This document shows positions 12,621 through 57,873 of a stretch of DNA of 64,000 bases, one piece after another. Within the stretch, counting starts at the first letter, position 1; every line of letters begins with the position of its first letter. A program made the position numbers and the translations under genes. The notes beneath the pieces were generated by a model, which searched no databases, had not been told where the DNA came from, and saw nothing but the letters and a program-made list of their open reading frames with translations. The DNA lies in NCBI GenBank assembly GCA_032718475.1, contig JAUCBJ010002774.1, positions 1-64,000 of the forward strand, written 5' to 3'. The DNA comes from Nemertoderma westbladi. Its lineage: Eukaryota; Animalia; Xenacoelomorpha.

Positions 12621-12723
12621 ATGAGTGTGTAGATTTCTTAAGCCCAGTGCTGACTGACTGCTTGGCCTACTGCTTGCCTACCGCTGTTACTGCTACTGAC
12701 CACAGGCTACTTTGATTTTGCAT

Positions 12724-16569: not shown

Positions 16570-16720
16570 GCGAATGTGGGACTGGCTTACTTTTTTTTTA
16601 TTGGTGGAGGGTACTACACAATTCGATGGCCTAGTAAATTTATCTATCTTATGTCCAATGTGCAGAGCAGTATTATTGATATGAAAATATAAATAAACGT
16701 ACGATGTGTAAAAAAAAAAA

Positions 16721-19295: not shown

Positions 19296-19599
19296 TGTTA
19301 TATGTGTTATATCAAAAGTCAGTATATATTTAATGATTTCAAGATAACTGGCAACATATAAGAAACTTAGCAAACCAATGTGCTTCAAACCGCAACAAAT
19401 TCTGTAATACACTGAAAGCAGAAGATAGGATGGAAATTCCTATGTCAAATGGGGACAATCTAGTTGGTCATTATAAAAACCGTTTCAGTCTCTTAGATTA
19501 TTGGGCCTTGGATAGGACTCTTAGATTGAATGATTTGAGAGATCTCCAATGTGTTTCAATGCAAAAAGTTTCGATGTATAAAGTGCTATACTCACACCT

Positions 19600-22611: not shown

Positions 22612-22784
22612 GCGCAGTTGAGAAACAGAAACTCGTCTACATATTGAATCGCGATAGCGAGGCGAGATTGACAATCTCCTCGCCCCTGGAGGCCCATAAA
22701 GCCAATACCATCATCTACTTTACTCTGGGGGTAGATGTTGGGTTCGACAATCCAACGTTCGCCACTCTCGAGATGGACTATGAG
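22612..22784 (+). CDS. SF3B3: SF3B3 coding exon 3
   Basis: CTGTAG acceptor; [30 protein letters not shown]...[19 protein letters not shown]; donor GAG|GTGAGT. 173 nt. Confidence 0.95.
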
Positions 22785-25299: not shown

Positions 25300-25447
25300 G
25301 AAGCTGATAACGATCCATCTGGTGACGCAGCCCAGGTCAGCCAACAGAGTCTAACTTTCTACGAGTTAGATCTCGGACTCAATCACGTAGTCAGAAAGTA
25401 CAGCGAGTTGTTGGAAGAACGGGGGAATATGTTGATAGCAGTACCAG
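25300..25447 (+). CDS. SF3B3: SF3B3 coding exon 4 (not in the ORF track)
   Basis: TTCAG acceptor; EADNDPSGDAAQVSQQSLTFYELDLGLNHVVRKYSELLEERGNMLIAVP; donor CAG|GTGAGT. 148 nt, frame consistent with exons 3 and 5. Confidence 0.95.
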
Positions 25448-28400
25448 GTGAGTGAGTGTGGGAGAACGGGGGAATATGTTGGTAGCAGTACCAGGTGAGT
25501 GAGTGAGTGTGGGAGAACGGGGGAATAAGTTGGTAGCAGTACCAGGTGAGTGATTGTGGGAGAACGGGGGAATATGTTGGTAGCAGTACCAGGTGAGTGA
25601 TTGTGGGAGAACGGGGGAATATGTTGGTAGCAGTACCAGGTGAGTGAGTGTGGGAGAACGGGGGAATATGTTGGTAGCAGTACCAGGTGAGTGATTGTGG
25701 GAGAACGGGGGAATATGTTGATAGCAGTACCGGGTGAGTGAGTGTGGGAGATGGGGGAATATGTTGATAGCAGTACCAGGTGAGTGATTGTGGGAGAACG
25801 GGGGAATATGTTGGTAGCAGTACCGGGTGAGTGAGTGTGGGAGAACGGGGGAATATGTTGATAGTAGTACCAGGTGAGTGAGTGTGGGAGACGGGGGAAT
25901 ATGTTGGTAGCAGTACCGGGTGAGTGAGTGTGGGAGAACGGGGGAATATGTTGATAGCCAGTACCAGGTGAGTGAGTGTGGGAGAACGGGGTAATATGTT
26001 GATAGCAGTACCAGGTGAGTGAGTGAGTGTGGGAGAACGGGGGAATATGTTAGGTAGCAGTACCAGGTGAGTGAGTGTGGGAGAACGGGGTAATATGTTG
26101 ATAGCAGTACCAGGTGAGTGAGTGAGTGTGGGAGAACGGGGGAATATGTTAGATAGCAGTACCGGGTGAGTGAGTGTGGGAGACGGGGGAATATGTTGGT
26201 AGCAGTACCAGGTGAGTGATTGTGGGAGAACGGGGGAATATGTTGATAGCCAGTACCAGGTGAGTGAGTGTGGGAGAACGGGGGAATATGTTGATAGCAG
26301 TACCGGGTGAGTGAGTGTGGGAGATGGGGGAATATGTTGATAGCAGTACCAGGTGAGTGATTGTGGGAGAACGGGGGAATATGTTGGTAGCAGTACCAGG
26401 TGAGTGATTGTGGGAGAACGGGGGAATATGTTGATAGCAGTACCGGGTGAGTGAGTGTGGGAGATGGGGGAATATGTTGATAGCAGTACCAGGTGAGTGA
26501 GTGAGTGTGGGAGAACGGGGGAATATGTTAGGTAGCAGTACCAGGTGAGTGAGTGTGGGAGAACGGGGTAATATGTTGATAGCAGTACCAGGTGAGTGAG
26601 TGTGGGAGAACGGGGGAATATGTTGATAGCAGTACCGGGTGAGTGAGTGTGGGAGATGGGGGAATATGTTGATAGCAGTACCAGGTGAGTGAGTGAGTGT
26701 GGGAGAACGGGGGAATATGTTAGGTAGCAGTACCAGGTGAGTGAGTGTGGGAGAACGGGGTAATATGTTGATAGCAGTACCAGGTGAGTGAGTGAGTGTG
26801 GGAGAACGGGGGAATATGTTAGATAGCAGTACCGGGTGAGTGAGTGTGGGAGACGGGGGAATATGTTGGTAGCAGTACCAGGTGAGTGATTGTGGGAGAA
26901 CGGGGGAATATGTTGATAGCCAGTACCAGGTGAGTGAGTGTGGGAGAACGGGGTAATATGTTGATAGCAGTACCAGGTGAGTGAGTGAGTGTGGGAGAAC
27001 GGGGGAATATGTTAGATAGCAGTACCGGGTGAGTGAGTGTGGGAGAACGGGGGAATATGTTAGATAGCAGTACCAGGTGAGTGAGTGTGGGAGAACGGGG
27101 GAATATGTTAGGTAGCAGTACCAGGTGAGTGAGTGTGGGAGAACGGGGGAATATGTTGGTAGCAGTACCGGGTGAGTGAGTGTGGGAGAACGGGGGAATA
27201 TGTTGTAGCAGTACCAGGTGAGTGAGTGTGGGAGAACGGGGGAATATGTTAGGTAGCAGTACCAGGTGAGTGAGTGTGGGAGAACGGGGGAATATGTTGG
27301 TAGCAGTACCGGGTGAGTGAGTGTGGGAGAACGGGGGAATATGTTAGATAGCAGTACCAGGTGAGTGAGTGTGGGAGAACGGGGGAATATGTTAGATAGC
27401 AGTACCAGGTGAGTGAGTGTGGGAGAACGGGGGAATATGTTAGGTAGCAGTACCAGGTGAGTGAGTGTGGGAGAACGGGGGAATATGTTGGTAGCAGTAC
27501 CGGGTGAGTGAGTGTGGGAGAACGGGGGAATATGTTGTAGCAGTACCAGGTGAGTGAGTGTGGGAGACGGGGGAATATGTTGGTAGCAGTGCCAGGTGAG
27601 TGAGTGTGGGAGAACGGGGTAATATGTTGATAGCAGTACCAGGTGAGTGAGTGAGTGTGGGAGAACGGGGTAATATGTTGATAGTAGTACCAGGTGAGTG
27701 AGTGAGTGTGGGAGAACGGGGGAATATGTTAGGTAGCAGTACCAGGTGAGTGAGTGTGGGAGAACGGGGTAATATGTTGATAGCAGTACCAGGTGAGTGA
27801 GTGAGTGTGGGAGAACGGGGGAATATGTTGATAGCAGTGCCAGGTGAGTGAGTGTGGGAGAACGGGGAATATGTTGGTAGCAGTACCAGGTGAGTGATTG
27901 TGGGAGAACGGGGGAATATGTTGGTAGCAGTACCAGGTGAGTGATTGTGGGAGAACGGGGGAATATGTTGGTAGCAGTACCAGGTGAGTGATTGTGGGAG
28001 AACGGGGGAATATGTTGATAGCAGTACCGGGTGAGTGAGTGTGGGAGATGGGGGAATATGTTGATAGCAGTACCAGGTGAGTGAGTGAGTGTGGGAGAAC
28101 GGGGGAATATGTTAGGTAGCAGTACCAGGTGAGTGAGTGTGGGAGAACGGGGTAATATGTTGATAGCAGTACCAGGTGAGTGAGTGAGTGTGGGAGAACG
28201 GGGGAATATGTTAGATAGCAGTACCGGGTGAGTGAGTGTGGGAGACGGGGGAATATGTTGGTAGCAGTACCAGGTGAGTGATTGTGGGAGAACGGGGGAA
28301 TATGTTGATAGCCAGTACCAGGTGAGTGAGTGTGGGAGAACGGGGTAATATGTTGATAGCAGTACCAGGTGAGTGAGTGAGTGTGGGAGAACGGGGGAAT

Positions 28401-31400
28401 ATGTTAGATAGCAGTACCGGGTGAGTGAGTGTGGGAGAACGGGGGAATATGTTAGATAGCAGTACCAGGTGAGTGAGTGTGGGAGAACGGGGGAATATGT
28501 TAGGTAGCAGTACCAGGTGAGTGAGTGTGGGAGAACGGGGGAATATGTTGGTAGCAGTACCGGGTGAGTGAGTGTGGGAGAACGGGGGAATATGTTGTAG
28601 CAGTCCAGGTGAGTGAGTGTGGGAGACGGGGGAATATGTTGGTAGCAGTGCCAGGTGAGTGAGTGTGGGAGACGGGGGAATATGTTAGATAGCAGTACCA
28701 GGTGAGTGAGTGTGGGAGGCGGGGGAATATGTTAGGTAGCAGTACCGGGTGAGTGAGTGTGGGAGAGCGGGGAATATGTTGGTAGCAGTACCGGGTGAGT
28801 GAGTGTGGGAGAACGGGGGAATATGTTAAGTAGCAGTACCGGGTGAGTGAGTGTGGGAGAACGGGGGAATATGTTAGGTAGCAGTACCGGGTGAGTGAGT
28901 GTGGGAGAACGGGGAATATGTTGGTAGCAGTACCGGGTGAGTGAGTGTGGGAGAACGGGGGAATATGTTAAGTAGCAGTACCGGGTGAGTGAGTGTGGGA
29001 GAACGGGGGAATATGTTAGGTAGCAGTACCGGGTGAGTGAGTGTGGGAGAACGGGGAATATGTTGGTAGCAGTACCGGGTGAGTGAGTGTGGGAGACGGG
29101 GGAATATGTTGATAGCGGTACCAGGTGGGTGAGTGTGGGAGACGGGGGAATATGTTGGTAGCAGTACCAGGTGAGTGAGTGTGGGAGACGGGGGAATATG
29201 TTGATAGCAATACCGGGTGAGTGAGTGTGGGAGAACGGGGGAATATGTTAGATAGCAATACCAGGTGAGTGAGTGTGGGAGACGGGGGAATATGTTGGTA
29301 GCAGTACCAGGTGAGTGAGTGTGGGAGATGGGGGAATATGTTAGATAGCAGTACCGGGTGAGTGAGTGTGGGAGACGGGGGAATATGTTAGGTAGCAGTA
29401 CCGGGTGAGTGAGTGTGGGAGAACGGGGGAATATGTTAGATAGCAGTACCAGGTGAGTGAGTGTGGGAGAACGGGGGAATATGTTGATAGCAGTGCCAGG
29501 TGAGTGAGTGTGGGAGAACGGGGGAATATGTTAGGTAGCAGTACCGGGTGAGTGAGTGTGGGAGAACGGGGGAATATGTTAGATAGCAGTACCAGGTGAG
29601 TGAGTGTGGGAGAACGGGGGAATATGTTGATAGCAGTGCCAGGTGAGTGAGTGTGGGAGGACGGGGGAATATGTTAGATAGCAATACCAGGTGAGTGAGT
29701 GTGGGGGACGGGGGAATATGTTGGTAGCAGTACCGGGTGAGTGAGTGTGGGAGAACGGGGGAATATGTTAGATAGCAATACCAGGTGAGTGAGTGTGGGA
29801 GACGGGGGAATATGTTGGTAGCAGTACCAGGTGAGTGAGTGTGGGAGATGGGGGAATATGTTAGATAGCAGTACCGGGTGAGTGAGTGTGGGAGACGGGG
29901 GAATATGTTAGGTAGCAGTACCGGGTGAGTGAGTGTGGGAGAACGGGGGAATATGTTAGATAGCAGTACCAGGTGAGTGAGTGTGGGAGAACGGGGGAAT
30001 ATGTTGATAGCAGTGCCAGGTGAGTGAGTGTGGGAGAACGGGGGAATATGTTAGGTAGCAGTACCGGGTGAGTGAGTGTGGGAGAACGGGGGAATATGTT
30101 AGATAGCAGTACCAGGTGAGTGAGTGTGGGAGAACGGGGGAATATGTTGATAGCAGTACCAGGTGAGTGAGTGAGTGTGGGAGAACGGGGTAATATGTTG
30201 ATAGCAGTACCAGGTGAGTGAGTGAGTGTGGGAGAACGGGGGAATATGTTAGGTAGCAGTACCAGGTGAGTGAGTGTGGGAGAACGGGGTAATATGTTGA
30301 TAGCAGTACCAGGTGAGTGAGTGAGTGTGGGAGAACGGGGGAATATGTTAGATAGCAGTACCGGGTGAGTGAGTGTGGGAGAACGGGGGAATATGTTGGT
30401 AGCAGTACCAGGTGAGTGATTGTGGGAGAACGGGGGAATATGTTGGTAGCAGTACCAGGTGAGTGATTGTGGGAGAACGGGGGAATATGTTGATAGCAGT
30501 ACCGGGTGAGTGAGTGTGGGAGATGGGGGAATATGTTGATAGCAGTACCAGGTGAGTGAGTGAGTGTGGGAGAACGGGGGAATATGTTAGGTAGCAGTAC
30601 CAGGTGAGTGAGTGTGGGAGAACGGGGTAATATGTTGATAGCAGTACCAGGTGAGTGAGTGAGTGTGGGAGAACGGGGGAATATGTTAGATAGCAGTACC
30701 GGGTGAGTGAGTGTGGGAGAACGGGGGAATATGTTAGATAGCAGTACCAGGTGAGTGAGTGTGGGAGAACGGGGGAATATGTTAGGTAGCAGTACCAGGT
30801 GAGTGAGTGTGGGAGAACGGGGGAATATGTTGGTAGCAGTACCGGGTGAGTGAGTGTGGGAGAACGGGGGAATATGTTGTAGCAGTCCAGGTGAGTGAGT
30901 GTGGGAGACGGGGGAATATGTTGGTAGCAGTGCCAGGTGAGTGAGTGTGGGAGACGGGGGAATATGTTAGATAGCAGTACCAGGTGAGTGAGTGTGGGAG
31001 GCGGGGGAATATGTTAGGTAGCAGTACCGGGTGAGTGAGTGTGGGAGAACGGGGAATATGTTGGTAGCAGTACCGGGTGAGTGAGTGTGGGAGAACGGGG
31101 GAATATGTTAAGTAGCAGTACCGGGTGAGTGAGTGTGGGAGAACGGGGGAATATGTTAGGTAGCAGTACCGGGTGAGTGAGTGTGGGAGAACGGGGAATA
31201 TGTTGGTAGCAGTACCGGGTGAGTGAGTGTGGGAGAACGGGGGAATATGTTAAGTAGCAGTACCGGGTGAGTGAGTGTGGGAGAACGGGGGAATATGTTA
31301 GGTAGCAGTACCGGGTGAGTGAGTGTGGGAGAACGGGGAATATGTTGGTAGCAGTACCGGGTGAGTGAGTGTGGGAGACGGGGGAATATGTTGGTAGCAG

Positions 31401-33626
31401 TACCAGGTGAGTGAGTGTGGGAGACGGGGGAATATGTTGATAGCAATACCGGGTGAGTGAGTGTGGGAGAACGGGGGAATATGTTAGATAGCAATACCAG
31501 GTGAGTGAGTGTGGGATACGGGGGAATATGTTGGTAGCAGTACCAGGTGAGTGAGTGTGGGAGATGGGGGAATATGTTAGATAGCAGTACCGGGTGAGTG
31601 AGTGTGGGAGACGGGGGAATATGTTAGGTAGCAGTACCGGGTGAGTGAGTGTGGGAGAACGGGGGAATATGTTAGATAGCAGTACCAGGTGAGTGAGTGT
31701 GGGAGAACGGGGGAATATGTTGATAGCAGTGCCAGGTGAGTGAGTGTGGGAGAACGGGGGAATATGTTAGGTAGCAGTACCGGGTGAGTGAGTGTGGGAG
31801 AACGGGGGAATATGTTAGATAGCAGTACCAGGTGAGTGAGTGTGGGAGAACGGGGGAATATGTTGATAGCAGTGCCAGGTGAGTGAGTGTGGGAGGACGG
31901 GGGAATATGTTAGATAGCAATACCAGGTGAGTGAGTGTGGGGGACGGGGGAATATGTTGGTAGCAGTACCGGGTGAGTGAGTGTGGGAGAACGGGGGAAT
32001 ATGTTAGATAGCAATACCAGGTGAGTGAGTGTGTGAGAACGGGGGAATATGTTGATAGCAGTGCCAGGTGAGTGAGTGTGGGAGATGGGGGAATATGTTA
32101 GATAGCAGTACCGGGTGAGTGAGTGTGGGAGACGGGGGAATATGTTAGGTAGCAGTACCGGGTGAGTGAGTGTGGGAGAACGGGGGAATATGTTAGATAG
32201 CAGTACCGGGTGAGTGAGTGTGGGAGACGGGGGAATATGTTAGGTAGCAGTACCGGGTGAGTGAGTGTGGGAGAACGGGGGAATATGTTAGATAGCAGTA
32301 CCAGGTGAGTGAGTGTGGGAGAACGGGGGAATATGTTGATAGCAGTGCCAGGTGAGTGAGTGTGGGAGAACGGGGGAATATGTTAGGTAGCAGTACCGGG
32401 TGAGTGAGTGTGGGAGAACGGGGGAATATGTTAGATAGCAGTACCAGGTGAGTGAGTGTGGGAGAACGGGGGAATATGTTGATAGCAGTGCCAGGTGAGT
32501 GAGTGTGGGAGGACGGGGGAATATGTTAGATAGCAATACCAGGTGAGTGAGTGTGGGGGACGGGGGAATATGTTGGTAGCAGTACCAGGTGAGTGAGTGT
32601 GGGAGACGGGGGAATATGTTGATAGCAGTACCAGGTGAGTGAGTGTGGGAGAACGGGGGAATATGTTGGTAGCAGTACCATGTGAGTGAGTGTGGGAGAA
32701 CGGGGGAATATGTTGATAGCAGTACCAGGTGGGTGAGTGTGGGAGAACGGGGTAATATGTTGATAGCAGCACCAGGTGAGTGAGTGAGTGTGGGAGAACG
32801 GGGGAATATGTTAGATAGCAGTACCGGGTGAGTGAGTGTGGGAGAACGGGGGAATATGTTAGATAGCAGTACCAGGTGAGTGAGTGTGGGAGAACGGGGG
32901 AATATGTTGATAGCAGTACCAGGTGAGTGAGTGTGGGAGAACGGGGTAATATGTTGATAGCAGTACCAGGTGAGTGAGTGAGGGTGGGAGAACGGGGGAA
33001 TATGTTAGATAGCAGTACCGGGTGAGTGAGTGTGGGAGAACGGGGGAATATGTTAGATAGCAGTACCAGGTGAGGGAGAACGGGGGAATATGTTGATATC
33101 AGTACCAGGTGAGTGAGTGTGGGAGAACGGGGGAATATGTTAGGTAGCAGTACCGGGTGAGTGAGTGTGGGAGAACGGGGGAATATGTTAGATAGCAGTA
33201 CCAGGTGAGTGAGTGTGGGAGAACGGGTGAATATGTTGATAGCAGTACCAGGTGAGTGAGTGTGGGAGGACGGGGGAATATGTTAGATAGCAATACCAGG
33301 TGAGTGAGTGTGGGGGACGGGGGAATATGTTGGTAGCAGTACCAGGTGAGTGAGTGTGGGAGATGGGGGAATATGTTGGTAGCAGTACCAGGTGAGTGAG
33401 TGTGGGAGAACGGGGGAATATGTTGGTAGCAGTACCAGGTGAGTGAGTGTGAGAGAACGGGGGAATATGTTGATAGCAGTACCAGGTGAGTGAGTGTGGG
33501 AGACGGGGGAATATGTTGGTAGCAGTACCAGGTGAGTGAGTGAGTGTGGGAGAACGGGGGAATATGTTGGTAGCAGTACCGGGTGAGTGAGTGTGGGAGA
33601 ACGGGGGAATATGTTGGTAGCAGTAC
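25413..33626 (+). repeat. 47-bp satellite GGAGAACGGGGGAATATGTTGRTAGCAGTACCAG|GTGAGTGAGTGTG, block 1
   Basis: About 175 units of 46-52 bp. The first unit is the last ~34 nt of exon 4 plus its donor. Confidence 0.96.
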
Positions 33627-35626
33627 TACTACTACTAGGATCGGCATGCTGCATTGCAGCTGCATTTTTAAGAATGCTGTGCCGGCTTGTCAACAAAATT
33701 GCACCGCCACAACTCCCTATCACCCATGACATTTGCTAGATCATCCGCATCTTTAAGGCCAGTGTCCTTTAAGATGCGTCTCAAGAAAGTCATGGGCTGT
33801 CCACCATGCTTATTCACTCCATGAGGCTGCCAAAGTACAAGATTATGCACTGGCTGGTCCTCACGGCGAAAGCAATGTCCTGCAAAGCGGAGGCGATTTT
33901 GTTCTAGTGTCAAGCTTGGGGGAACCAATGAGACACCTCCAATGTTATATAGTGTCTGGTTGGAGATGTGTGCATTGTACTTGACACAATGTACCCGGCG
34001 TAGCATTCTTGTGAATGTGCCATCCAGAGATTTGGTGTCCTCAGCAGTTAGAGCCCAGCATGGACTCCCGTAGAGGAGTACTGGAACTACTGCTGCTCTA
34101 AATAATCGGACCTTAAGTTTCCGATTAATTCTAGGTGACTTCCAAATCCTGGAAAGCCTATTCAAGGCTGCCCATGCCTTTCCCTTACGTATTCGAAGGT
34201 CCTCACCTGACTTCCGGATCCATGATCCCAGGTAACAGAAGTCGTCCACATGCTCAAGCATACCATCCTTTGAGCTTATGCTCATCCGATCAGAGACTTG
34301 CTGAGGACTTTCAAAGTTAACTGTCAGAATTTTGGTCTTTCTGGAGTTAATAAAAAGACCAACACTAGAAGCAGCATGTTCTAATGAGCTGAGGAGCCGC
34401 TGGGCTCCCTCTAATGATTCTGAGAGTACTCCTAAGTCATCAGCAAAGTCTAGATCAGTTAGGTACTTGGCAGGATTTCCTCGACTTCTGGAGCCAGTAG
34501 GTGGAGTTATCATCACCCCATCATCATTATGATGATCTAAGGACATGCGTAGAACATAGTCAACCACAATAATGAACAAGAATGGTGCAAGTGTGTCTCC
34601 TTGGAGGACGCCCCATAACACTTCAAATGGTTCTGTGTCACCGTCAACAGTAGACACAAATGTTGTCGAACCATCGTATACTGATCTGATTGCTGCAATA
34701 ATTTCATCAGGAATCCCATATAATGAAAGTATGCTGAACATACGTGAGCGAGAGACTGAATCAAAGGCCTTGAAGAAGTCAACAAAGATAACAGCCAGAT
34801 GCCTGTCTTTCTTTTTTGATAACTCTTCAATTATCCTTCTAAGTGCCAAAATGGGCTCCATGGTCCCACGACCTTTACGGAACCCATTCTGATTTCCACG
34901 TAGCAGTCTCTCAATGGGATCTCTGATGCGATTTAATAGAATTCTATTGTATAGTTTTGCAGCAATCGAGATCAATGAGATTCCCCGAAAAGAACCATAG
35001 AGTGTTAGGTTGCCCTTCTTGGGAACTGGCACCAACTTATTTGTTTTCATTTCTTGTGGGACTCTTGTTGTACGGTACATGTCTACTATGATGGGATAGA
35101 TGAGCTTTAAACACTCAGGTATTTTAAAGACCTCAGGGGGAACACCATCTACTCCACTGGCACGATTGGTCTTAATGCTCTTTGCAGCAGCCTTCACTTC
35201 TGCAAAGGAGATATCGCCAATGGGAATATCTGGGAGTACAGACTCAGACACTTTTACTTCTATAAAGTTATCAGGCAATACCCTGTCATTATTGAGGAGC
35301 TTTTCAAAGTGGGCTTTCCAACCATTAAGGCGATCGGCTGGTGATTCAGCCTTAACCTTGGTGGTTGGTTGGCTTTTCCGCCCAGTAAGCAGATTGATCG
35401 ATTTCCATGCCTGGGATGATTGCCTGCTGTCGTCAGCATCATTGATGGCATCAACCTGTTGGTTTATTAGCTCCTGTAGATTAACAGAGTACTGCCTGTT
35501 CAGGGACCTAGATGCAGCTTTAACTGTATTCTTGGCCGCTGTAGTCTGTTTGAGTCGGGACTCTTTCTGCGCCTTATGAAGGTCATTTCGGCACTTCTGA
35601 ATTTTTTTTTGAATTTTTGGAATAAC
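33627..35626 (-). mobile_element. 5'-truncated RTE-like LINE with an uninterrupted RT frame, inserted in the 47-bp satellite
   Basis: 13-bp TSD TTGGTAGCAGTAC at 33614-33626 and 35627-35639; (TAG)n 3' tail. ORF to 33668 has FRGISLISIAAKLYNRILLNR, QNGFRKGR, FVDFFKAFDSV, GVLQGDTLAPFLF, LDFADD, FCYLGS and RLRFAGHC. No endonuclease domain present. Confidence 0.9.
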
Positions 35627-36808
35627 TTGGTAGCAGTACCAGGTGAGTGAGTGTGGGAGATGGGGGAATATGTTGGTAGCAGTACCAGGTGAGTGAGTGT
35701 GGGAGACGGGGGAATATGTTGGTAGCAGTACCAGGTGAGTGAGTGTGGGAGAACGGGGGAATATGTTGATAGCAGTACCGGGTGAGTGAGTGTGGGAGAT
35801 GGGGGAATATGTTGGTAGCAGTACCAGGTGAGTGAGTGTGGGAGAACGGGGGAATATGTTGATAGCAGTACCAGGTGAGTGAGTGTGGGAGACGGGGGAA
35901 TATGTTGGTAGCAGTACCAGATGAGTGAGTGTGGGAGATGGGGGAATATGTTGGTAGCAGTAGCAGGTGAGTGAGTGTGGGAGAACGGGGGAATATGTTG
36001 ATAGCAGTACCAGGTGAGTGAGTGTGGGAGAACGGGGGAATATGTTGATAGCAATACCGGGTGAGTGAGTGTGGGAGAACGGGGGAATATGTTGGTACCA
36101 GTACCGGGTGAGTGAGTGTGGGAGAACGGGGGAATATGTTGGTAGCAATACCGGGTGAGTGAGTGTGGGAGAACGGGGGAATATGTTGGTAGCAATACCG
36201 GGTGAGTGAGTGTGGGAGAACGGGGGAATATGTTGGTAGCAATACCGGGTGAGTGAGTGTGGGAGAACGGGGGAATATGTTGGTAGCAATACCGGGTGAG
36301 TGAGTGTGGGAGAACGTGGGAATATGTTGGTAGCAGTACCAGGTGAGTGAGTGTGGGAGACGGGGGAATATGTTAGATAGCAGTACCAGGTGAGTGAGTG
36401 TGGGAGAACGGGGGAATATGTTAGATAGCAGTACCAGGTGAGTGAGTGTGGGAGAACGTGGGAATATGTTGGTAGCAGTACCAGGTGAGTGAGTGTGGGA
36501 GAACGGAGGAATATGTTGATAGCAGTACCAGGTGAGTGAGTGTGGGAGACGGGGGAATATGTTAGATAGCAGTACCAGGTGAGTGAGTGTGGTAGAACGG
36601 AGGAATATGTTGATAGCAGTACCAGGTGAGTGAGTGTGGGAGAACGGGGGAATATGTTAGATAGCAGTACCAGGTGAGTGAGTGTGGGAGAACGGGGGAA
36701 TATGTTGGTAGCAGTACCGGGTGAGTGAGTGTGGGAGAACGGGGGAATATGTTGATAGCAGTACCGGGTGAGTGAGTGTGGGAGAACGGGGGAATATGTT
36801 GATAGCAG
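35627..36808 (+). repeat. 47-bp satellite, block 2
   Basis: About 25 further units, ending ~330 bp before the exon 5 acceptor. Confidence 0.95.
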
Positions 36809-37142
36809 CCGTAACGGGAAAAATTGAATTTACGCAATGACTATCATTTATTTAAATAGTTTGTTAACTATGTTTTATAATTTGATGTAATAATGTTCAT
36901 TATAACTGTTGTTATCGAGAAGGTAAATAAAGTGTTTTATTTACTGTAAAATATGCAATTTTATTGGTAAATTTTAAATAACCTTGGTTCCCCCCGTTAA
37001 ACAACTATGAGTTACAGAGTCAGCGATAAATTAAATTATATAATTTTCAGTCTATCTTATATTAAGTCTGTATAATTTCGCGCTGTGCCATAAGGTCAGC
37101 GGTAAATTCGGTATATTTGATCATTTTTTTTCACCGATTTAG

Positions 37143-37249
37143 GCGGAGGCGATGGTCCCAGTGGGGTTCTTATCGGAGCGGAGAACTACATCACTTACAA
37201 AAACTTTGGCGACCAGCCAGATATCCGGATGCCAATACCTAGACGGCGG
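37143..37249 (+). CDS. SF3B3: SF3B3 coding exon 5 (not in the ORF track)
   Basis: TTTAG acceptor; GGGDGPSGVLIGAENYITYKNFGDQPDIRMPIPRRR; donor CGG|GTTAGT. 107 nt. Confidence 0.95.
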
Positions 37250-37295
37250 GTTAGTTTGTAGTTAAATACCTGGACGATGGATTAGTTTGTAGTTA
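37234..37295 (+). repeat. Two-copy 31-bp tandem duplication spanning the exon 5 donor
   Basis: AATACCTAGACGGCGG|GTTAGTTTGTAGTTA followed by AATACCTGGACGATGGATTAGTTTGTAGTTA (27/31 identical). Confidence 0.9.
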
Positions 37296-37440
37296 GATTC
37301 TTATTATACAAAATAGCTTGAAAGTCTCAAAAGTTCTTTACATTAAATTTATTTACCGTATACAGTTGCGCGTGATCCTATATTTTGACCACCACAAATA
37401 AAATGACGTCATCTATTTGATTTTTTTTTCTACCGTCCAG

Positions 37441-37537
37441 AATGATTTGGATGACCCCGACAGAGGAATGCTATTCGTTTCCTCGGCAACCCATAAAACC
37501 AAAGCCATGTTCTTTCTTCTGCTGCAAACTGAGCAAG
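37441..37537 (+). CDS. SF3B3: SF3B3 coding exon 6 (not in the ORF track)
   Basis: T-rich tract then CCAG acceptor; NDLDDPDRGMLFVSSATHKTKAMFFLLLQTEQ(G); donor AAG|GTTAGT. 97 nt. Confidence 0.95.
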
Positions 37538-38327
37538 GTTAGTTACATTATTGAGCTGCAAATTCAGTCTGGATTCTAAAATGTTTGATGGTTTGAGTTT
37601 TTGTTGAATCAAAATGATTTCGCCCTTGAAATAATTTATTATATTCCTGTAACACACGGCAGAGCCGAATATTTACACGAACGAGCGAAGCGAGTTGATT
37701 CTCGCAATGTTTTTCGCGAACTCTGATTGAATATTATAATATCTTATACGTTAAGAAGAAACTACTCTGGTCATTTTATGCCAATCACAATTAAGCTAAA
37801 TTATGAAAGTGAATAACGTAATAGTTAGTTACTTTAAGCAACAAGTTCTCATTAACTGCAAGCCGTTAATAAATATGGTGAGAGCTCAAGGGAATGCATG
37901 GATCACTTCACTATAGAGTCGCGTTCATAAATCGAGAAATTTATCGTAAAAAATTAATTATTCTTTGATAATTGCTACATTTATTAATATGATATTTACA
38001 CATCCCGCGCGAGCTTATACTTTATAAATACAAAAAATACACAAATTAGGAAATTCAAATTATATATCAGGAAGAAATATTAAGCCTACTTTACATTTGA
38101 TGGCACACAATGCAGAAATCCCTAGAGGTTAATAAATTAATTGTAATTAAATTAATGAAAATTTAAATCATAACCAATAATTGTGTACAAAAACAGACTT
38201 TTCAAAACTAAGTGCTCCTTTATAGTAAAACCCATAAAACCACAGGCTTTTACCATGGAATTGTATACAAGTTTCTCCATGGCAACTGCCAACGACTGGG
38301 GGACTGGTAGCCTTGACGACCACCGCA

Positions 38328-39034: not shown

Positions 39035-42000
39035 TTACACTACTCTACACTTCATATTAACTCACTAACCACTACACTACACTTCATTTTAACTCACTAA
39101 CCACTATACTACATTTCATATTAACTCACTAACCACTACACTACACTTCATATTAACTCACTAACCACTATACTACACTTCAGATTAACTCACTAACCAC
39201 TACATTACACTTCATATTAACTCACTAACCACTACACTACACTTCATATTAACTCACTAACCACTATACTACACTTCAGATTAACTCACTAACCACTACA
39301 TTACACTTCATATTAACTCACTAACCACTACACTACACTTCATATTAACTCACTAACCACTATACTACACTTCAGATTAACTCACTAACCACTACATTAC
39401 ACTTCATATTAACTCACTAACCACTACATTACACTTCATATTAACTCACTAACCACTACACTACACTTCATATTAACTCACTAACCACTATACTACACTT
39501 CAGATTAACTCACTAACCACTACATTACACTTCATATTAACTCACTAACCACTACACTACACTTCATATTAACTCACTAACCACTATACTACACTTCAGA
39601 TTAACTCACTAACCACTACATTACACTTCATATTAACTCACTAACCACTACACTACACATCATATTAACTCACTAACCACTATACTACACTTCAGATTAA
39701 CTCACTAACCACTACATTACACTTCATATTAACTCACTAACCACTACACTACACTTCATATTAACTCACTAACCACTATACTACACTTCAGATTAACTCA
39801 CTAACCACTACATTACACTTCATATTAACTCACTAACCACTACACTACACTTCATATTAACTCACTAACCACTATACTACACTTCAGATTAACTCACTAA
39901 CCACTACATTACACTTCATATTAACTCACTAACCACTACACTACACTTCATATTAACTCACTAACCACTACACTACACTTCATATTAACTCACTAACCAC
40001 TATACTGCACTTCATATTAACTCACTAACCACTAGACTACACATTATATTAACTCACTAACCACGACACTACACTTCATATTAACTCACTAACCACTACA
40101 CTACACTTCATATTAACTCACTAACCACTACACTACACTTCATATTAACTCACTAACCATTACACTACACATCAGATTAACTCACTAACCACTACACTAC
40201 ACATCATATTAACTCACTAACCACTACACTACACTTCATATTAACTCACTAACCACTACACTACACTTCATATTAACTCACTAACCACTATACTGCACTT
40301 CATATTAACTCACTAACCACTAGACTACACATTATATTAACTCACTAACCACGACACTACACTTCATATTAACTCACTAACCAATACACTATACTTCATA
40401 TTAACTCACTAACCACTACACTGCACTTCATATTAACTCACTAACCACTACACTAGACTTCATATTAACTCACTAACCACTACACTTCAGATTAACTCAC
40501 TAACCACTGCATTACACTTCATATTAACTCACTAACCACTACACTACATTTCATATTAACTCACTAACCACTACACTAGACTTCATATTAACTCACTAAC
40601 CACTACACTACACTTCATATTAACTACTAACCACTACACTACACTTCATATTAACTCACTAACCACTACAACACTACATTTCATACTAACTCTCTAACCA
40701 CTACACTACACTTCATATTAACTCACTAACCACGACACTACACTTCATATTAACTCACTAACCAATACACTATACTTCATATTAACTCACTAACCACTAC
40801 ACTGCACTTCATATTAACTCACTAACCACTACACTAGACTTCATATTAACTCACTAACCACTACACTTCAGATTAACTCACTAACCACTGCATTACACTT
40901 CATATTAACTCACTAACCACTACACTACATTTCATATTAACTCACTAACCACTACACTAGACTTCATATTAACTCACTAACCACTACACTACACTTCATA
41001 TTAACTACTAACCACTACACTAGACTTCATATTAACTCACTAACCACTACACTACACTTCATATTAACTCACTAACCACTACACTACACTTCATATTAAC
41101 TCACTAACCACTACACTGCACTTCATATTAACTCACTAACCACTACACTACACATCATATTAACTCCCTAACCATTACACTACACATCAGATTAACTCAC
41201 GAACCACTACACCACACAACATATTAACTCACTAACCACTACACTACACTTCATATTAACTCACTAACCACTACACTACACTTCATATTAACTCACTTAC
41301 CATTACACTACACATCAGATTAACTCACTAACCACTACACTACGCATCATATTAACTCACTAACCATTACACTACACATCAGATTAATTCACTAACCACT
41401 ACACTACATATCATATTAACTCACTAACCACTACACTACACTTCATATTAACTCACTAACCACTACACTACACTTCATATTAACTCACTAACCATTACAC
41501 TACACATCAGATTAACTCACTAACCACTACACTACACATCATATTAACTCACTAACCACTACACTAGACTTCATATTAACTCACTAACCACTACACCACA
41601 CTTCATATTAACTCACTAACCGTTACACTACACATCAAATTAACTCACTAACCACTACACTACACATCATATTAACTCACTAACCACTACACTACACTTC
41701 ATATTAACTCACTAACCACTACACTACACATCAGATTAACTCACTAACCACTACAACACTACACTTCATACTAACTCTCTAACCACTACACTACACTTCA
41801 TATTAACCCAATAACCACTACACTACACTTCATATTAACTCACTAACCACTACAACACTACACTTCATATTAACTCACTAACCATTACACTACACATCAG
41901 ATTAACTCACTAACCACTACACTACACATCATATTAACTCACTAACCACTACACTACACTTCATATTAACTCACTAACCACTACACTACACGTCATATTA

Positions 42001-43236
42001 ACTCACTAACCACTATACTGCACTTCATATTAACTCACTAACCACTAGACTACACATTATATTAACTCACTAACCACTACACTACACTTCATATTAACTC
42101 ACTAACCACTACAACACTACATTTCATACTAACTCTCTAACCACTACACTACACTTCATATTAACTCACTAACCACTACACTACACTTCATATTAACTCA
42201 CTAACCACTACAACACTACACTTCATATTAACTCACTAACCACTACACTACACATTATATTAACTCACTAACCAACCACTACACTGCACGTCATATTAAC
42301 TCACTAACCACTACACTACACTTCATATTAACTCACTAACCACTACATTACACTTCATATTAACTCACTAACCACTACAACACTACACTTCATACTAACT
42401 CTCTAACCACTACACTACACTTCATATTAACCCAATAACCACTACACTACACTTCATATTAACTCACTAACCACTACAACACTACACTTCATATTAACTC
42501 ACTAACCACTACACTACACATTATATTAACTCACTAACCACTACAACACTACACTTCATACTAACTCTGTAACCACTACACTACACTTCATATTAACTCA
42601 CTAACCAACCACTACACTACACTTCATATTAACTCACTAACCAACCACTACACTACACTTCATATTAACTAACCAACCACTACACTACACTTCATATTAA
42701 CTCACTAACAAACCACTACACTACACTTCATATTAACTCACTAACCAACCACTACACTACGCGTCATATTAACTCACTAACCACTACACTACACTTCATA
42801 TTAACTCACTAACCAACCACTACACTACACGTCATATTAACTCACTAACCACTACACTACACATTATATTAACTCACTAACCACTACACTACACTTCATA
42901 TTAACTCACTAACCACTACAACACTACACTTCATATTAACTCACTAACCACTACACTACACATTATATTAACTCACTAACCACTACACTACACTTCATAT
43001 TAACTCACTAACCACTACACTTCATATTAACTCACTAACCATTACACTACACTTCATATTAACTCACTAACCAACCACTACACTACACTTCATATTAACT
43101 CACTAACCACTACACTACACATTATATTAACTCACTAACCACTAGACTACACATTATATTAACTCACTAACCACTACACTACACATTATATTAACTCACT
43201 AACCACTAGACTACACATTATATTAACTCACTAACC
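39035..43236 (-). repeat. 32-bp satellite (TTAATATGAAGTGTAGTGTAGTG|GTTAGTGAG)n starting at the donor of the Ly6-like gene
   Basis: About 130 units of CTCACTAACCACTACACTACACTTCATATTAA on the + strand. The array edge coincides with ACG|GTTAGTGAG at 43236/43235. Confidence 0.95.
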
Positions 43237-45269: not shown

Positions 45270-46450
45270 CGTACTTAGTTCCAATTTAAGCCTCATGCGA
45301 ATTTAGTTCCAATGGAAACGAATTTAGTTTCAATTTTGGCGAACTTAGTTCCAATAACTAGAGAAAAACGAAAACGAATTTAGTTCCAATGGATGCGAAT
45401 TTAGTTCCAATGGAAGCGAATTTAGTTCCAATGCAAGCGAATTTAGTTCCAATGCAAGCGAATTTAGTTCCAATGGAAGCGAACTTAGTTCCAATGTTTC
45501 AGGTGTGGGGCGAGCCACGTAGTTGGCGAAGAATCTGTTTAAGGACACCATTAGGTGGATGGTTAAATAATAATTGTAAATAACTAACCCAAACAACGCC
45601 CAACCTCCTAACCAAAACAATTTAATTAGATTCATTTCTATTTAATCATTTAAAATTATATTCATTGTAAAAAACAACGCCAAAGGTCTTAACCCAAACT
45701 ACGCCCAACCTCCTAGCCCAAACAACTGGTAAATATTGTATTTGGTGTGAAAATGGCACAATGTGTATGACTTGAGTATATAATACTACAGACTCAGTCA
45801 GTCAGTATCAGTATACTCGTGATTAATATATATTTCAAAATGTGCAATTATACATTTTAATTCATTAAATGACAGAAGGGTTTTACAATTATTTACAATT
45901 ATTGTTGACCCTGACCCACCCCAAATAGTGGCAATACGCAATAGGCTTCGCCTACTACGTGGCTATCCCCACGATTGAAACATTGGAACAAAGTTCGTAC
46001 CCATTGGAACTAAATTCGCTTCCATTGGAACTAAATTCGCATGCATTGGAACTAAATTCGCTTGCATTGGAACTAAATTCGCATGCATTGGAACTAAATT
46101 CGCTTGCATTGGAACTAAATTCGCTTGCATTGGAACTAAATTCGCATGCATTGGAACTAAATTCGCTTGCTTTGGAACTAAATTCACATGCATTGGAACT
46201 AAATTCGCATGCATTGGAACTAAGTTCGCATCCATTTGGAACTAAATTCGCTTCCATTGGAACTAATTTCGCATCCATTGGAACTAAATTCGCATCCATT
46301 GGAACTAAGTTCGTTTTGATATTCCGGGATTGGAACTAAGTTCGCCTTGATTGGAACTAAGTTCGCTTTGTAAAATTTATTTTGGAACTAAATTCGTTTC
46401 AATTGGAACTAAGTTCGCATTTGAAAATGTGCGATTGGAAATAAGTTCGT
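45270..46450. mobile_element. Head-to-head pair of Helentron-like ends carrying inverted 21-bp tandem arrays
   Basis: (GCGAATTTAGTTCCAATGCAA)n at 45270-45497 followed by GTGGGGCGAGCCACGTAGTTGGCGAAG. Mirror image CTTCGCCTACTACGTGGCTATCCCCAC followed by (TTGCATTGGAACTAAATTCGC)n at 45946-46450. Confidence 0.7.
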
Positions 46451-48428
46451 TCTACCGCGTGGACTCACCTTCGCATAATTGAGGTGTTAAAATTCCGCAG
46501 AACAATATGATAATGTCATATAACGTGGCTCGATTCATCCTTGTAGAGAAATCTTTCACCCATAAATCGACGGTATTTGTCATATATAATTATGAAATTA
46601 AATTCATAAAATGAATTCGTGAAACAATTCAGAAATATAAACTATTTATTATGCACTAATGTAAATATACTACAACGCATGTAAACGTAACTGCAAACAA
46701 AACATCATAAAAGCAAATGAGACAGAGTTTAGGGTAATGACTAACTCAATGATTTTAATAAAAGCGTTAGATGGAGGTGTACTTTCTATTTACTATATTA
46801 TACTCAAAGGATATATCAATTCTCACGAGGTTTATCTATTGAGTAGAATGTTGCATTATTTATAAAGGGAGGTTGGTATTGCACTAGTTAATGATGAAAT
46901 TAATGTTTTAACACCCACCTTCTTTTGGTCTCCTGTGGGGGCGGCTTCCTTTTAAACTATTTATGTGCATTTTTATTTAAAGGTGATTTCAGTGTTGACA
47001 TATATAGACGTTGAAATCATGTTGAATTTAATTTGTGTCGGTTAGGATTGTTTATTTTAGTCTGTGTAATTAGACAGACAATAATTATTAGTGATGCAAA
47101 ATCAAACTGAAATTGAACTGAAATATAAATCAAACTTAAATTTAACTGAAACATGAATCAAACTGAAATTGATACCATAAATTGAAATTGATATTTAAGG
47201 GTGTCAACGCTACGCCGACAACACAGCTATGAACAATTAGTGTTAATTAACGTGAATTATCAATTGAGGGAAAGGTACAGGTAGCAGTGGTAGGCTATTC
47301 TAACCAAAACAATAAACGGGAATTAATCACACAGGTTACAGAATAGATCTTGTTCGTAATAAAAGTTGTTAGTTGTTATCTTTGGATGAAATGCTGTCCA
47401 ATTTTTGATGAAGGTAAATGTAAAAGCAGCGTAAATGTTACTTTTAAAAAGTAAATGTTTGATTGATACGATAGGGGCGCCATAGCAACCGTTATTGCAG
47501 CAATTATTTAATGGACCATAGTATCGATCGCTAATGGCTGTTGTGTAATATTTCTTTGTGTAAGCTTATAAACACTAATACACTGTGTGTATGTGTAATC
47601 GCGTCGCTCCTATCTTATATCTCTATCACGGGCCGGCTCAGTGCTGTGTTTATCCAGTAGGGACTGAAACCCACAACCACGGATAGTTTGCCTGAGTCGA
47701 GACCACCTGCCCCTTCTACCTGTATCCGATGGCATTGCGAGCGCGTTTTCCAGTCCATAATTCCAGGCAATAACTAAACATACCCATACCGTGTTGTCAC
47801 CGCACCGATGATACTGTCACCAGTTCTTTATCTTTACTCCCAGCTCGAATTCCTACATCTACTCTATACTGAAATTTCAAGTGGCTCGCCTTGTATTTGT
47901 CTATTCTGTGGTACATGTTGCCGTTATTGGTTCGCTTGCCCCCATTCCTTCTTGGCGTGTAAGTCTTATCTTAAGATCGTTTGTCGTACTAATGTCTCTC
48001 TCTGTTCTTCTTACTTTTGCGTGTATTTGTGTTTACTTTATAGTGAACAAATTATGTAATATTAAAATACTTTTTTTTCGGAAATTGAAATATTATATCA
48101 TTACGTGATACATGCTATGCCGAAATGTATGAGTCGATTTACTATATGAGACCGGTGAGATGGGATGGTTTTATGAGACCGGTGAGACACACATCACCAC
48201 TATTGGGCCTGTCAAGGCATATAAATCATTGTAAAGCTCATTTGTCTCGTCTTACTTTTCGGTAGAAACTAAAAGTAAGATTTTTCGCAAAAATATGGGA
48301 ATAGTTGTTGTGTCTTTTTGGACAAAATTTAATTTTCGATCCTTTAATGTTATACATAATATATTATGATTATACTAATCATGGCTCAGCATTAAAATAC
48401 CGAATCCTAAAATACGGGGATTCAAATT

Positions 48429-49195
48429 CTGAAACAAACACACTGGTAACAGAATACTGAAACAAACAGACTGGTAACAGAATACTGAAACAAACAGACT
48501 GGTATCAGAATACTGAAACAAACAGACTGGTATCAGAATACTGAAACAAACACACTGGTATCAGAATACTGAAACAAACAGACTGCTTCAGAATACTGAA
48601 ACAAACTTACTGTTATCAGAATACTGAAACAAACAAACTGGTATCAGAATACTGAAACAAACAGACTGCTTCAGAATACTGAAACAAACTTACTGTTATC
48701 AGAATACTGAAACAAACAAACTGGTATCAGAATACTGAAACAAACAGACTGCTGTCAGAATACTATACTGGAACAAACTTACTGTTATCAGAATACTGAA
48801 ACAAACACACTGGTATCAGAATACTGAAACAAACAGACTGCTATCAGAATACTGAAACAAACTTACTGTTATCAGAATACTGAAACAAACACACTGGTAT
48901 CAGAATACTGAAACAAACAAACTGGTATCAGAATACTGAAACAAACATAATGGTATCAGAATCCCTGAAACAAACACAATGATTTCAGAATATTGAAACA
49001 TACACGCCGATATCAGAATACTGAAACAAACACCCCAGTATCGAGTATCAAAATACTGAAACAAACTCACCGGTATCAGAACAGACTGGTATCAGAATAC
49101 TGAAACAAACACACTGCTATCAGAATACTGAAACAAAGGCACCTGTATCCTAATGCTGAGACAAACATCACACCGGTATCAGATTACTGATACAA
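48429..49195. repeat. 28-bp minisatellite (CAGAATACTGAAACAAACACACTGGTAT)n
   Basis: About 27 units, degenerating towards 49195. Confidence 0.92.
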
Positions 49196-50815
49196 AGACA
49201 AAAAGCAAAAAGAACACTGAATTAATTTCTTCAGTTTCAGTGAGGGACTAAAGTATGATAGCGTATAATAGCTTAATAAATTACCTGTCCGAAATTAGAG
49301 AAAAAAATAATTGATTTATCCTTAAATTTAAGTATATTTAAATTTAAGTAATAATGAAGTAATTTAGTAAACAATTTATATATTAAGTAACACACAATTA
49401 ATTGTAATTATACGTCAAAAATTGTCATTTTTTATTTTTTTTTATTTAACAAATTTTTTATTTAATATATACCATGCTAAAAGAAATGATTAAACTCTGA
49501 AATGTAATTATATTGACTACATAAGTTATTATAAAATGTTATAAAACAAATGCCACATTTATCTACATAACTCAGCTATTTTGTTGGTAGGCTATGATGT
49601 GCCGTTACAGTATGAATTGGTATGTTGAATATTCCAGTGATTACTATGCCTCGGCACGTTCGCGTAACCACCACCTTCTGTCGGGACTCATACTTAGAAT
49701 AATTTATTTAACGAAATTCCCTAAGTTATGCCGACATATGGCAGCATCACAGCAGAAAAAATGCATAATTCTAGGCCTTGTTATTCACTGTATGGCTGTT
49801 TGACTTGACTTTTGCTGCATTTTAAGTACTTGCCATAATACACTACTATAATACAAGTACGCAAAATAAATTGTTGTGTCTCTATATATAAGAACTAAAT
49901 TGTTGTTGTACACCGTATTATTATACCTCCAGTAAATGTGTCTCAGTTTGTTCTGAGTCTCTGGAATAAGCAACCAATGGTTACATTTTCATCCTAAGAA
50001 ATGCCTGTTCCATTGATGATAGCATTCTCATCATCCTTTCCTAAACTTTTCAACCAATGCAATTCCTACAATCTGTCAGGTTATCCATGTAGGTAGAGAT
50101 TGCCATTTGTTACAAAGAGTAGTTATGTATATCATTGCACGATAATTTGCAATCACACACACACGGGTGGTACTGAGCATTCCCTTAAAATTCCATACCG
50201 TTCGCAAATTGAAGTTACAGGTTGGAGAGATATTGGCAAATACTCCAAAATTATATTTACATTGAGGAAATAGTGAATTGATTGGGTGGATTGAAAATTG
50301 TAACTAATTGAAATTGTGAAAAATACGTGCACCCCATTGACGCCTGCCGGCCCTTGTGAAGAATACCAGACCTGGTATTCTTCACATGGGCGCGCCTGCC
50401 TATGCACAGAACAAAAAGTTAGTGCTATTTGTTTTGTCTGCCCCTATTGTGAAATACGCATTATTCGCAAATATGCTTTTCATATTTTGTGAGCTATTTA
50501 TTATTTTATTTGATAAAAGTGTTGGAGTGGATACAGTCTCTTGTATAATTAGTTCAAATAGGGTTCTAATACTGACCTATACCATTTACCTCATATATCC
50601 GCACTATTAAAAATTAAATCACCGCAAATGGTGTCCAAGTTAACGTTGATGGGATGTTATGACAGACCTGTACCACACTTATTTATGTTCGTTCTTGCCG
50701 TCTCATACTCATATCGGTGGATCCCGTATATATATTGTTAAGTTTTTAAAGTAAATACGTTGTCTATATCCATACCATGCATATCTACACCTATATATGG
50801 TTATTTCACTCATAA

Positions 50816-53800
50816 GTGCTGTTTATTTTACCACTATGTACTATTATATTATTTCTCAGTGTTGTTTATTTTACCACTATGTACTATTATATTATTTATC
50901 AGTGTTGTTTATTTTACTCCTATGTACTATTATATTATTTCTCAGTGTTGTTTATTTTACCACTATGTACTATTATATTATTTCTCAGTGTTGTTTATTT
51001 TACTACTATGTACTATTATATTATTTCTCAGTGTTGTTTATTTTACCACTATGTACTATTATATTATTTCTCAGTGTTGTTTATTTTACCACTATGTACT
51101 ATTATATTATTTATCAGTGTTGTTTATTTTACCACTATGTACTATTATATTATTTCTCAGTGTTGTTTATTTTACCACTATATACTATTATATTATTTAT
51201 CAGTGTTGTTTATTTTACCACTATGTACTATTATATTATTTCTCAGTGTTGTTTATTTTACTACTATGTACTATTATATTATTTATCAGTGTTGTTTATT
51301 TTACCACTATGTACTATTATATTATTTCTCAGTGTTGTTTATTTTACCACTATGTACTAGTAGATTATTTCTCAGTGTTGTTTATTTTACCACTATGTAC
51401 TATTATATTATTTCTCAGTGTTGTTTATTTTACTACTATGTACTATTGTATTATTTATCAGTGTTGTTTATTTTACCACTATGTACTATTATATTATTTC
51501 TCAGTGTTGTTTATTTTACCACTATGTACTATTATATTATTTATCAGTGTTGTTTATTTTACCACTATGTACTATTATATTATTTCTCAGTGTTGTTTAT
51601 TTTACCACTATGTACTATTATATTATTTATCAGTGTTGTTTATTTTACCACTATGTACTATTATATTATTTCTCTATTTCTCATTGTTTTTATTTTACGA
51701 CTATGTACTATTATATTATTTCTCAGTGTTGTTTATTTTACTACTATGTACTATTATATTATTTATCAGTGTTGTTTATTTTACTACTATGTACTATTAT
51801 ATTATTTCTCAGTGTTGTTTATTTTACCACTATGTACTATTATATTATTTCTCAGTGTTGTTTATTTTACCACTATGTACTATTATATTATTTATCAGTG
51901 TTGTTTATTTTACCACTATGTACTATTATATTATTTCTCAGTGTTGTTTATTTTACCACTATGTACTATTATATTATTTCTCAGTGTTGTTTATTTTACT
52001 ACTACTATGTACTATTATATTATTTATCAGTGTTGTTTATTTTACCACTATGTACTATTATATTATTTCTCAGTGTTGTTTATTTTACCACTCTGTACTA
52101 TTATATTATTTATCAGTGTTGTTTATTTTACTACTATGTACTATTATATTATTTATCAGTGTTGTTTATTTTACCACTATGTACTATTATATTATTTATC
52201 AGTGTTGTTTATTTTACCACTATGTACTATTATATTATTTATCAGTGTTGTTTATTTTACCACTATGTACTATTATATTATTTATCTATTTCTCAGTGTT
52301 GTTTATTTTACGACTATGTACTATTATATTATTTCTCAGTGTTGTTTATTTTACTACTATGTAGTATTATATTATTTCTCAGTGTTGTTTATTTTACTAC
52401 TATGTACTATTATATTATTTCTCAGTGTTGTTTATTTTACCACTATGTACTATTATATTATTTCTCAGTGTTGTTTATTTTACCACTATGTACTATTATA
52501 TTATTTCTCAGTGTTGTTTATTTTACCACTATGTACTATTATATTATTTCTCAGTGTTGTTTATTTTACTACTATGTACTATTATATTATTTCTCAGTGT
52601 TGTTTATTTTACCACTATGTACTATTATATTATTTATCAGTGTTGTTTATTTTACCACTATGTACTATTATATTATTTCTCAGTGTTGTTTATTTTACCA
52701 CTATGTACTATTATATTATTTATCAGTGTTGTTTATTTTACCACTATGTACTATTATATTATTTCTCAGTGTTGTTTATTTTACTACTATGTACTATTAT
52801 ATTATTTCTCAGTGTTGTTTATTTTACCACTATGTACTATTATATTATTTATCAGTGTTGTTTATTTTACCACTATGTACTATTATATTATTTCTCAGTG
52901 TTGTTTATTTTACCACTATGTACTATTATATTATTTATCAGTGTTGTTTATTTTACCACTATGTACTATTATATTATTTATCAGTGTTGTTTATTTTACC
53001 ACTATGTACTATTATATTATTTCTCAGTGTTGTTTATTTTACCACTATGTACTATTATATTATTTATCAGTGTTGTTTATTTTACCACTATGTACTATTA
53101 TATTATTTCTCAGTGTTGTTTATTTTACCACTATGTACTATTATATTATTTCTCAGTGTTGTTTATTTTACTACTATGTACTATTATATTATTTCTCAGT
53201 GTTGTTTATTTTACCACTATGTACTATTATATTATTTATCAGTGTTGTTTATTTTACCACTATGTACCATTATATTATTTCTCAGTGTTGTTTATTTTAC
53301 TACTATGTACTATTAGATTATTTCTCAGTGTTGTTTATTTTACCACTATGTACCATTATATTATTTCACAGTGTTGTTTATTTTACCACTATGTACTATT
53401 ATATTATTTCTCAGTGTTGTTTATTTTACCAAATGTACTATTAGATTATTTCTCAGTGTTGTTTATTTTACCACTATGTACTATTATATTATTTCTCAGT
53501 GTTGTTTATTTTACCACTATGTACTATTATATTATTTCTCAGTGTTGTTTATTTTACCACTATGTACTATTATATTATTTCTCAGTGTTGTTTATTTTAC
53601 CACTATGTACTATTATATTATTTATCAGTGTTGTTTATTTTACCACTATGTACTATTATATTATTTCTCAGTGTTGTTTATTTTACCACTATGTACTATT
53701 ATATTATTTCTCAGTGTTGTTTATTTTACCACTATGTACTATTATATTATTTCTCAGTGTTGTTTATTTTACCACTATGTACTATTATATTATTTCTCAG

Positions 53801-57689: not shown

Positions 57690-57873
57690 GACTTTCGAGG
57701 ATTTGGAAGTCACACAGGATTCATCGGAAATTTAAGAATCATCGGAAACTTAAGGTCCGATTATTTAGAGCAGCAGTAGTTCCAGTACTCCTCTATGGGA
57801 GTCCATGCTTGGCTTTAACTGCTGAGGACACCAAATCTCTGGATAGCACATTCACAAGAATGACAAGCCGGCA
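57690..57873 (+). mobile_element. Short, internally deleted fragment of the same RTE-like LINE
   Basis: ATCGGAAACTTAAGGTCCGATTATTTAGAGCAGCAGTAGTTCCAGTACTCC...ACAAGAATG joined directly to ACAAGCCGGCA from the element's 3' end. Confidence 0.8.

Follow-up and report, generated by a model that had tools for sequence, protein, structure and literature searches.

Tandem repeats that straddle exon-intron boundaries have been described in lancelets and in humans. In lancelets, such repeats are known as mirages, minisatellites made of boundary duplications of 10–160 bp (PMC3087553). They have been reported for Adh3 and the globin genes BflGb6 and BflGb9 (PMC3087553), as well as for troponin C and PGBD5 (PMC3902484). 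In BflGb9, the 3′ boundary of exon 2 is said to have 'a duplicate', that is, a low-copy repeat on the donor side (PMC3087553). According to the same article, splicing is undisturbed by mirages, some copies have no splice signals, copies at the edges escape homogenisation, and the origin of boundary repeats is stated as unclear. Somatic instability has been reported for the Adh3 mirage, as relayed in PMC3087553 and PMC3902484.

In humans, donor-spanning minisatellites are listed for F7 IVS7 (37 bp, 5–9 copies), CBS IVS13, intron 2 of 6-16, lamin B2 and PDGF intron 4 (PMC1557585). Preference for the upstream donor was shown experimentally for F7, and the nearest pseudo-donors are used in 6-16 and CBS (both PMC1557585). 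A genome-wide survey of donor-spanning duplications was not found in the literature covered, which includes few subscription journals. Introns can also be gained by tandem genomic duplication of AGGT.

A two-copy duplication across donor 5 of SF3B3

The window, i.e. the whole 64,000-nt stretch of Nemertoderma westbladi DNA analysed, contains the first six coding exons of the splicing-factor gene SF3B3, on the plus strand. Exons 1–4 lie at 9363–9588, 10510–10680, 22612–22784 and 25300–25447, exon 5 (the fifth coding exon in the window) at 37143–37249 and exon 6 at 37441–37537; joined, they give 307 codons without a stop. A profile search matched exon 1 to the RSE1/DDB1/CPSF1 propeller. Exon 5 encodes 35 amino acids that match human SF3B3 residues 241–275 (E 3e-15), and the 32 amino acids of exon 6 correspond to residues 276–307 (E 7e-12). 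Since the first match ends at residue 275 and the second starts at 276, the two are contiguous and the authentic donor of the 191-nt intron 5 (37250–37440, plus strand) is the GT at 37250–37251 in the context GG|GTTAGT, with the frame open into exon 6. Exon 7 was not found in the window (best candidate 17/25), and the intron that begins at donor 6 is no shorter than 26 kb. Upstream of SF3B3, a galactose-3-O-sulfotransferase gene occupies a single frame at 5505–6719 (plus strand).

Contigs of four of the six available runs, X1 to X4, were compared with the window over positions 36830–38030. The X4 contig (3536 nt) contains exons 5 and 6 and skips exactly the 191 nt between them, which begin with GT and end with AG. 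Its loose ends correspond to the exon-4 end and to coding sequence that is new. X4 was guessed to be a DNA run, so the most likely identity of the contig is a transcript, a processed copy being the less likely alternative. The authentic site of donor 5 is therefore used in one spliced contig, minor isoforms being invisible in contigs.

A 31-bp unit is present at this donor in two head-to-tail copies. Copy 1 (37234–37264, plus strand) comprises the last 16 nt of exon 5 and the first 15 nt of intron 5; copy 2 (37265–37295, plus strand) is wholly intronic. The copies agree at 27 of 31 positions and so differ by 13%. From copy 1 to copy 2 the unit is changed at its positions 8 (A>G), 13 (G>A), 14 (C>T) and 17 (G>A); all four are transitions, and three of them change G/C to A/T in copy 2. 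One converts the duplicated GT to AT, leaving a dead donor, GG|ATTAGT, at 37281–37282 (plus strand). The anatomy given in the preliminary description, a 31-bp unit of 16 exonic and 15 intronic nt duplicated once with four mismatches, one of them turning GG|GTTAGT into GG|ATTAGT, was exact. The same 31-bp array was found by TRF. The 31 nt that splicing at copy 2 would add bring in a stop at the fourth codon and shift the frame.

An adjacent match of 27/31 is expected about 1e-5 times by chance anywhere in the window. In a GT-anchored test the score of donor 5 was reached by none of the 3793 unmasked GT sites and by none of 141 donor-like decoys. The 38 kb of unmasked window contains 14 low-copy duplications, donor 5 included, and the probability that one of the five array-free donors is covered by chance is 0.006–0.03, varying with the smallest period counted; the site having been chosen after the fact, this statistic is modest evidence. 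An assembly artefact was rejected, as DNA contigs of X2 and X3, from another sample with two haplotypes, cross the repeat with no indel. A hairpin as the cause was not supported, the region folding no better than its shuffles (z 0.25), and breakpoint microhomology was not found, identity ending at both unit ends.

The donor-5 repeat is thus a head-to-tail duplication whose first unit lies across a real exon-intron boundary, and it is a low-copy case of a known repeat type, the one seen in lancelet mirages and in human F7-type minisatellites. It resembles mirages in the duplication of an exon-intron boundary, in the presence of several such repeats per locus, in having a copy without a splice signal and in normal splicing. 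The unit of 31 bp is within the mirage range of 10–160 bp (PMC3087553), compared to 157 bp in BflGb9 (PMC3087553), and the neighbouring arrays described below reach 120–240 copies, compared to 3–6 for BflGb6 (PMC3087553). With the human repeats it shares a first unit spanning the exon end and donor and splicing from the donor that lies furthest upstream. In contrast, F7-type repeats are multi-copy VNTRs with intact, potentially functional pseudo-donors (at least five copies), whereas there are only two copies at donor 5, and copy 2 carries AT in place of GT. Like intron gain through AGGT, the event was a tandem duplication that included a splice signal; unlike it, no new intron or exon resulted and the copy is silent in an existing intron, with exons 5 and 6 joined and the protein colinear with human SF3B3.

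Age of the duplication

Three haplotypes from two samples were available: X1, possibly the window's own source, and X2 and X3, different haplotypes of one other sample. In the contigs of all three the repeat is crossed without an indel and the four copy differences are constant; X3 has one synonymous change at 37234. Differences from the window amount to 9/640 sites for X1, 7/710 for X2 and 9/358 for X3, i.e. 1.0–2.5%, and the divergence between copies is 4/31 (95% interval 3.6–30%). At the rates of haplotype difference, the probability of at least 4 changes in 31 positions is 0.0002–0.007. Because the copies differ by 13% and the haplotypes that share the two-copy state by 1–2.5%, the duplication is likely older than the split of the sampled alleles, although three haplotypes do not imply fixation. 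In a possible contrast to lancelet mirages, no length variation of the pair was seen among these three haplotypes from two samples, a small set in contigs prone to drop rare alleles.

This age bears on the two labels that the site had been given. An incipient duplication, or seed stage, is contradicted by copies that are more different from each other than the haplotypes carrying them. An aborted one fits: the state is likely old, limited to two copies and common to the three haplotypes.

Donor repeats elsewhere in the window

Eight donors and eight acceptors were mapped in the window, belonging to SF3B3 and to a nested gene on the minus strand. Donor 2 is spanned by a 16-bp array (8 + 8 nt; 10673–19297, plus strand) split by retrotransposon insertions, and donor 4 by a 47-bp array (36 + 11 nt; 25412–36808, plus strand) that keeps its GT and is split by a LINE piece. 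The nested gene has a 32-bp array that starts at one of its donors (39038–43236, minus strand); this array also keeps its GT, and its exonic part is unrecognisable. A possible older two-copy duplication is seen at donor 6 (37521–37588, plus strand), with a 34-bp unit of 17 exonic and 17 intronic nt; its copies are identical at 22/34 positions and GT is changed to GA (p 0.014 against the 3793 GT decoys, 0.056 after correction for four donors). No duplication was detected at donor 1 (p 0.46), donor 3 (p 0.58) or the first minus-strand donor (p 0.23), nor at the eight acceptors in either geometry (p at least 0.235). Donor-spanning repeats are thus present at 4/8 donors (perhaps 5/8) and 0/8 acceptors, in a sample of eight donors from a window picked for its arrays. 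Three of the six large non-coding arrays start at donors (P ~5e-5, the window not having been chosen blind); the large 43-bp and 28-bp arrays show no tie to any mappable donor. The 43-bp array is an AT-rich satellite at 50815–55621 with ~111 copies, flanked on neither side by a mapped splice site.

The nearby kilobase arrays and the donor-5 pair likely share their origin in one donor-biased process. Such a kinship, proposed in the preliminary description, is reasonable given the same anatomy and the counts at donors and acceptors, and it is unproven. C is scarce in the first units of the large arrays (1/16, 4/47 and 1/32), compared to 4/31 and 5/34 in the two pairs. G-skew was set aside as the cause of expansion, the comparison being three against two and the 43- and 28-bp arrays having expanded without such skew. 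The idea that long introns gain from carrying many U1 sites was rejected, since the intron of donor 6 is among the long ones and yet carries a relic only.

The nested gene lies in SF3B3 intron 6 and has three exons on the minus strand, at 46539–46469, 43336–43236 and 38630 to ~38330. It encodes 157 amino acids with a hydrophobic start and 13 Cys, and the 32-bp satellite begins at its second donor. The product may be Ly6/three-finger-like; the last exon had no Pfam match. An inverted, foldback-like pair of 21-bp arrays (45297–46449) ends ~20 nt downstream of the first coding donor of this gene. Upstream of the gene, two unrelated 28-bp repeats (47099–47172 and 48425–49196) both show, on the minus strand, a pyrimidine-rich run followed by TTTCAG; they could be repeats at the acceptors of untranslated exons.

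Mobile elements are also present. The 16-bp array contains a retrotransposon-like element at 12620–16722 (plus strand) with an open frame of 1289 amino acids, an A tail and ends marked by a short direct repeat; it is perhaps CRE-like and had no Pfam match. Pieces of one apparent LINE family with reverse transcriptase were seen at 18345–18880 (plus), 33627–35618 (minus) and ~57716–57850 (plus); they interrupt the 16-bp and 47-bp donor arrays, with one further piece outside them.

Loss of the second GT and the fate of the pair

Retention of GT was counted in the large donor arrays after exclusion of tiled copies with less than 75% ungapped identity. GT is present in 223/239 copies of the 16-bp array (5 of 244 tiled copies dropped), in 153/154 copies of the 47-bp array (40 of 194 dropped for indels; 194/195 in an anchor count) and in 126/126 copies of the 32-bp array (none dropped; 118/118 in another count). 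In the two main blocks of the 16-bp array the G and T positions are changed in 0–5% of copies, compared to a median of 2–4% elsewhere, and in a small third block GT is gone in 5/20 copies. Copy 2 of this array (10689–10704, plus strand) has GA for GT and is among its most diverged copies, yet the array grew to ~240 copies. On its own, then, a dead copy 2 is no mark of a small array, though the 16-bp array may have lost this GT after it had grown. The earlier proposal that loss of GT stopped expansion at donor 5 is thus left unsupported.

The chance that one of the four differences falls on GT is 0.245, or 0.27 with base-specific rates that allow for faster G/C change, so no selection is needed to account for the loss. 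At the five donor repeats, three of the nearest copies are without GT, against 1.6 expected from divergence (P 0.15). All four differences at donor 5 are in the exonic part or at the +1 G, the remaining 14 intronic positions being unchanged (P 0.076). This clustering and the three of five nearest copies lean weakly to selection, both being short of significance.

At the 47-bp array, the end of exon 4 in the X4 contig matches a 32-mer that has its next exact copy 4.7 kb downstream, at 30131, and the contig has 822 nt upstream, 716 of them coding. Given these distances, the first exon-4 donor is likely used ahead of the ~190 intact GTs of the array, an indirect conclusion.

The reading that we favour, and consider fairly probable, is that one head-to-tail duplication across donor 5, likely old and stalled, produced the pair, and that the GT of copy 2 was likely lost neutrally. 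A slip or break repair at the DNA level would have copied 31 bp. The duplication would have been tolerated since copy 1 preserves the exon end and the donor, the upstream donor winning. With two copies only there would be no homogenisation, so that copy 2 could gain its changes from G/C to A/T, one of them at +1. Mismatches between repeats damp repeat instability; at present those between the two copies would make further slippage or unequal exchange unlikely, and the pair would be stabilised. Copy 2 is then likely an old harmless leftover. It is likely, too, that the state of GT does not decide which seeds expand. The observed parts of this explanation are the anatomy, the use of the first donor in one contig and the state common to three haplotypes.

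Selection could instead have removed a competing donor: copy 2 would have leaked, adding 31 nt and a stop in an essential gene, and its G-to-A change would have been favoured. Read-through would give a stop at codon 4 and a frameshift, the nearest pseudo-donors are indeed used in human 6-16 and CBS (PMC1557585), and the excess of nearest copies without GT and the clustering of differences near the donor point the same way. Neither the nearest-copy count nor the fall of a difference on GT is significant, however, the two youngest arrays retain GT in copy 2, and the first donor of the 47-bp array probably works ahead of ~190 intact ones; we regard selection as unlikely here, and the preliminary suggestion of it stands as a possibility that the counts do not bear out. 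A different role for GT is that an intact one is needed for amplification, through splicing- or U1-coupled instability, with its loss aborting the array. GT is indeed kept in 93–100% of copies in all three large donor arrays, and both two-copy cases are without it in the second copy. High retention is nonetheless usual at most positions of homogenised arrays, the 16-bp array has ~240 copies in spite of a dead copy 2, the 43- and 28-bp arrays are large with no mapped donor, and one locus cannot give the order of GT loss and arrest, all of which makes this reading highly improbable.

Two further alternatives concern the origin of the pair rather than its GT. The 31 bp that follow copy 2 (37296–37326, plus strand) are a candidate for a heavily decayed third copy, in which case the site would be the remnant of a longer or earlier array, left from an earlier round of duplication. 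This 31-mer matches each copy at 14/31 positions and either copy at 16/31, the joint best score among all offsets in intron 5 (p ~0.008), and 8 of its 17 differences are transitions. The match was first spotted by eye, though, and the ungapped tests (p 0.008–0.025; 0.016–0.025 for single copies) disagree with the gapped ones (p 0.16–0.29); 31-mers beyond it score just 7–11, and a remnant seems to us quite unlikely. The pair could also be an ordinary, random short duplication that happens to lie across a donor and is unrelated to the large arrays. None of the 13 other low-copy duplications in the 38 kb of unmasked window (period at least 12, at least 80% identical) lies at a mapped donor, and with donor 5 left out the four other array-free donors together give a combined p of 0.079. 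Against coincidence stand the small probability of covering an array-free donor, a score unmatched among the GT decoys and the start of three of six large arrays at donors, and we hold it to be very unlikely.

More broadly, donors might be lineage-wide hot spots for tandem duplication, with about half of them affected, a joint reading that we consider doubtful. The repeats in the window would then form an age series, from the young 47-bp array through the stalled 31-bp pair and the old 16-bp array to the 34-bp relic, and selection would strip GT only from the copy beside the real donor, distant copies keeping theirs. If this were true, one genome would suffice to measure how donor repeats are born and die and how far donor competition reaches.

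Taken alone, the donor-5 pair is a small, probably neutral duplication, valuable as a dated data point; two-copy cases show the start and the end of the first duplication. Should donors in general be affected as densely as in the window (four, perhaps five, of eight), one genome would hold thousands of cases, and such cases could test mutation bias against selection and measure the downstream range over which a duplicate donor competes.
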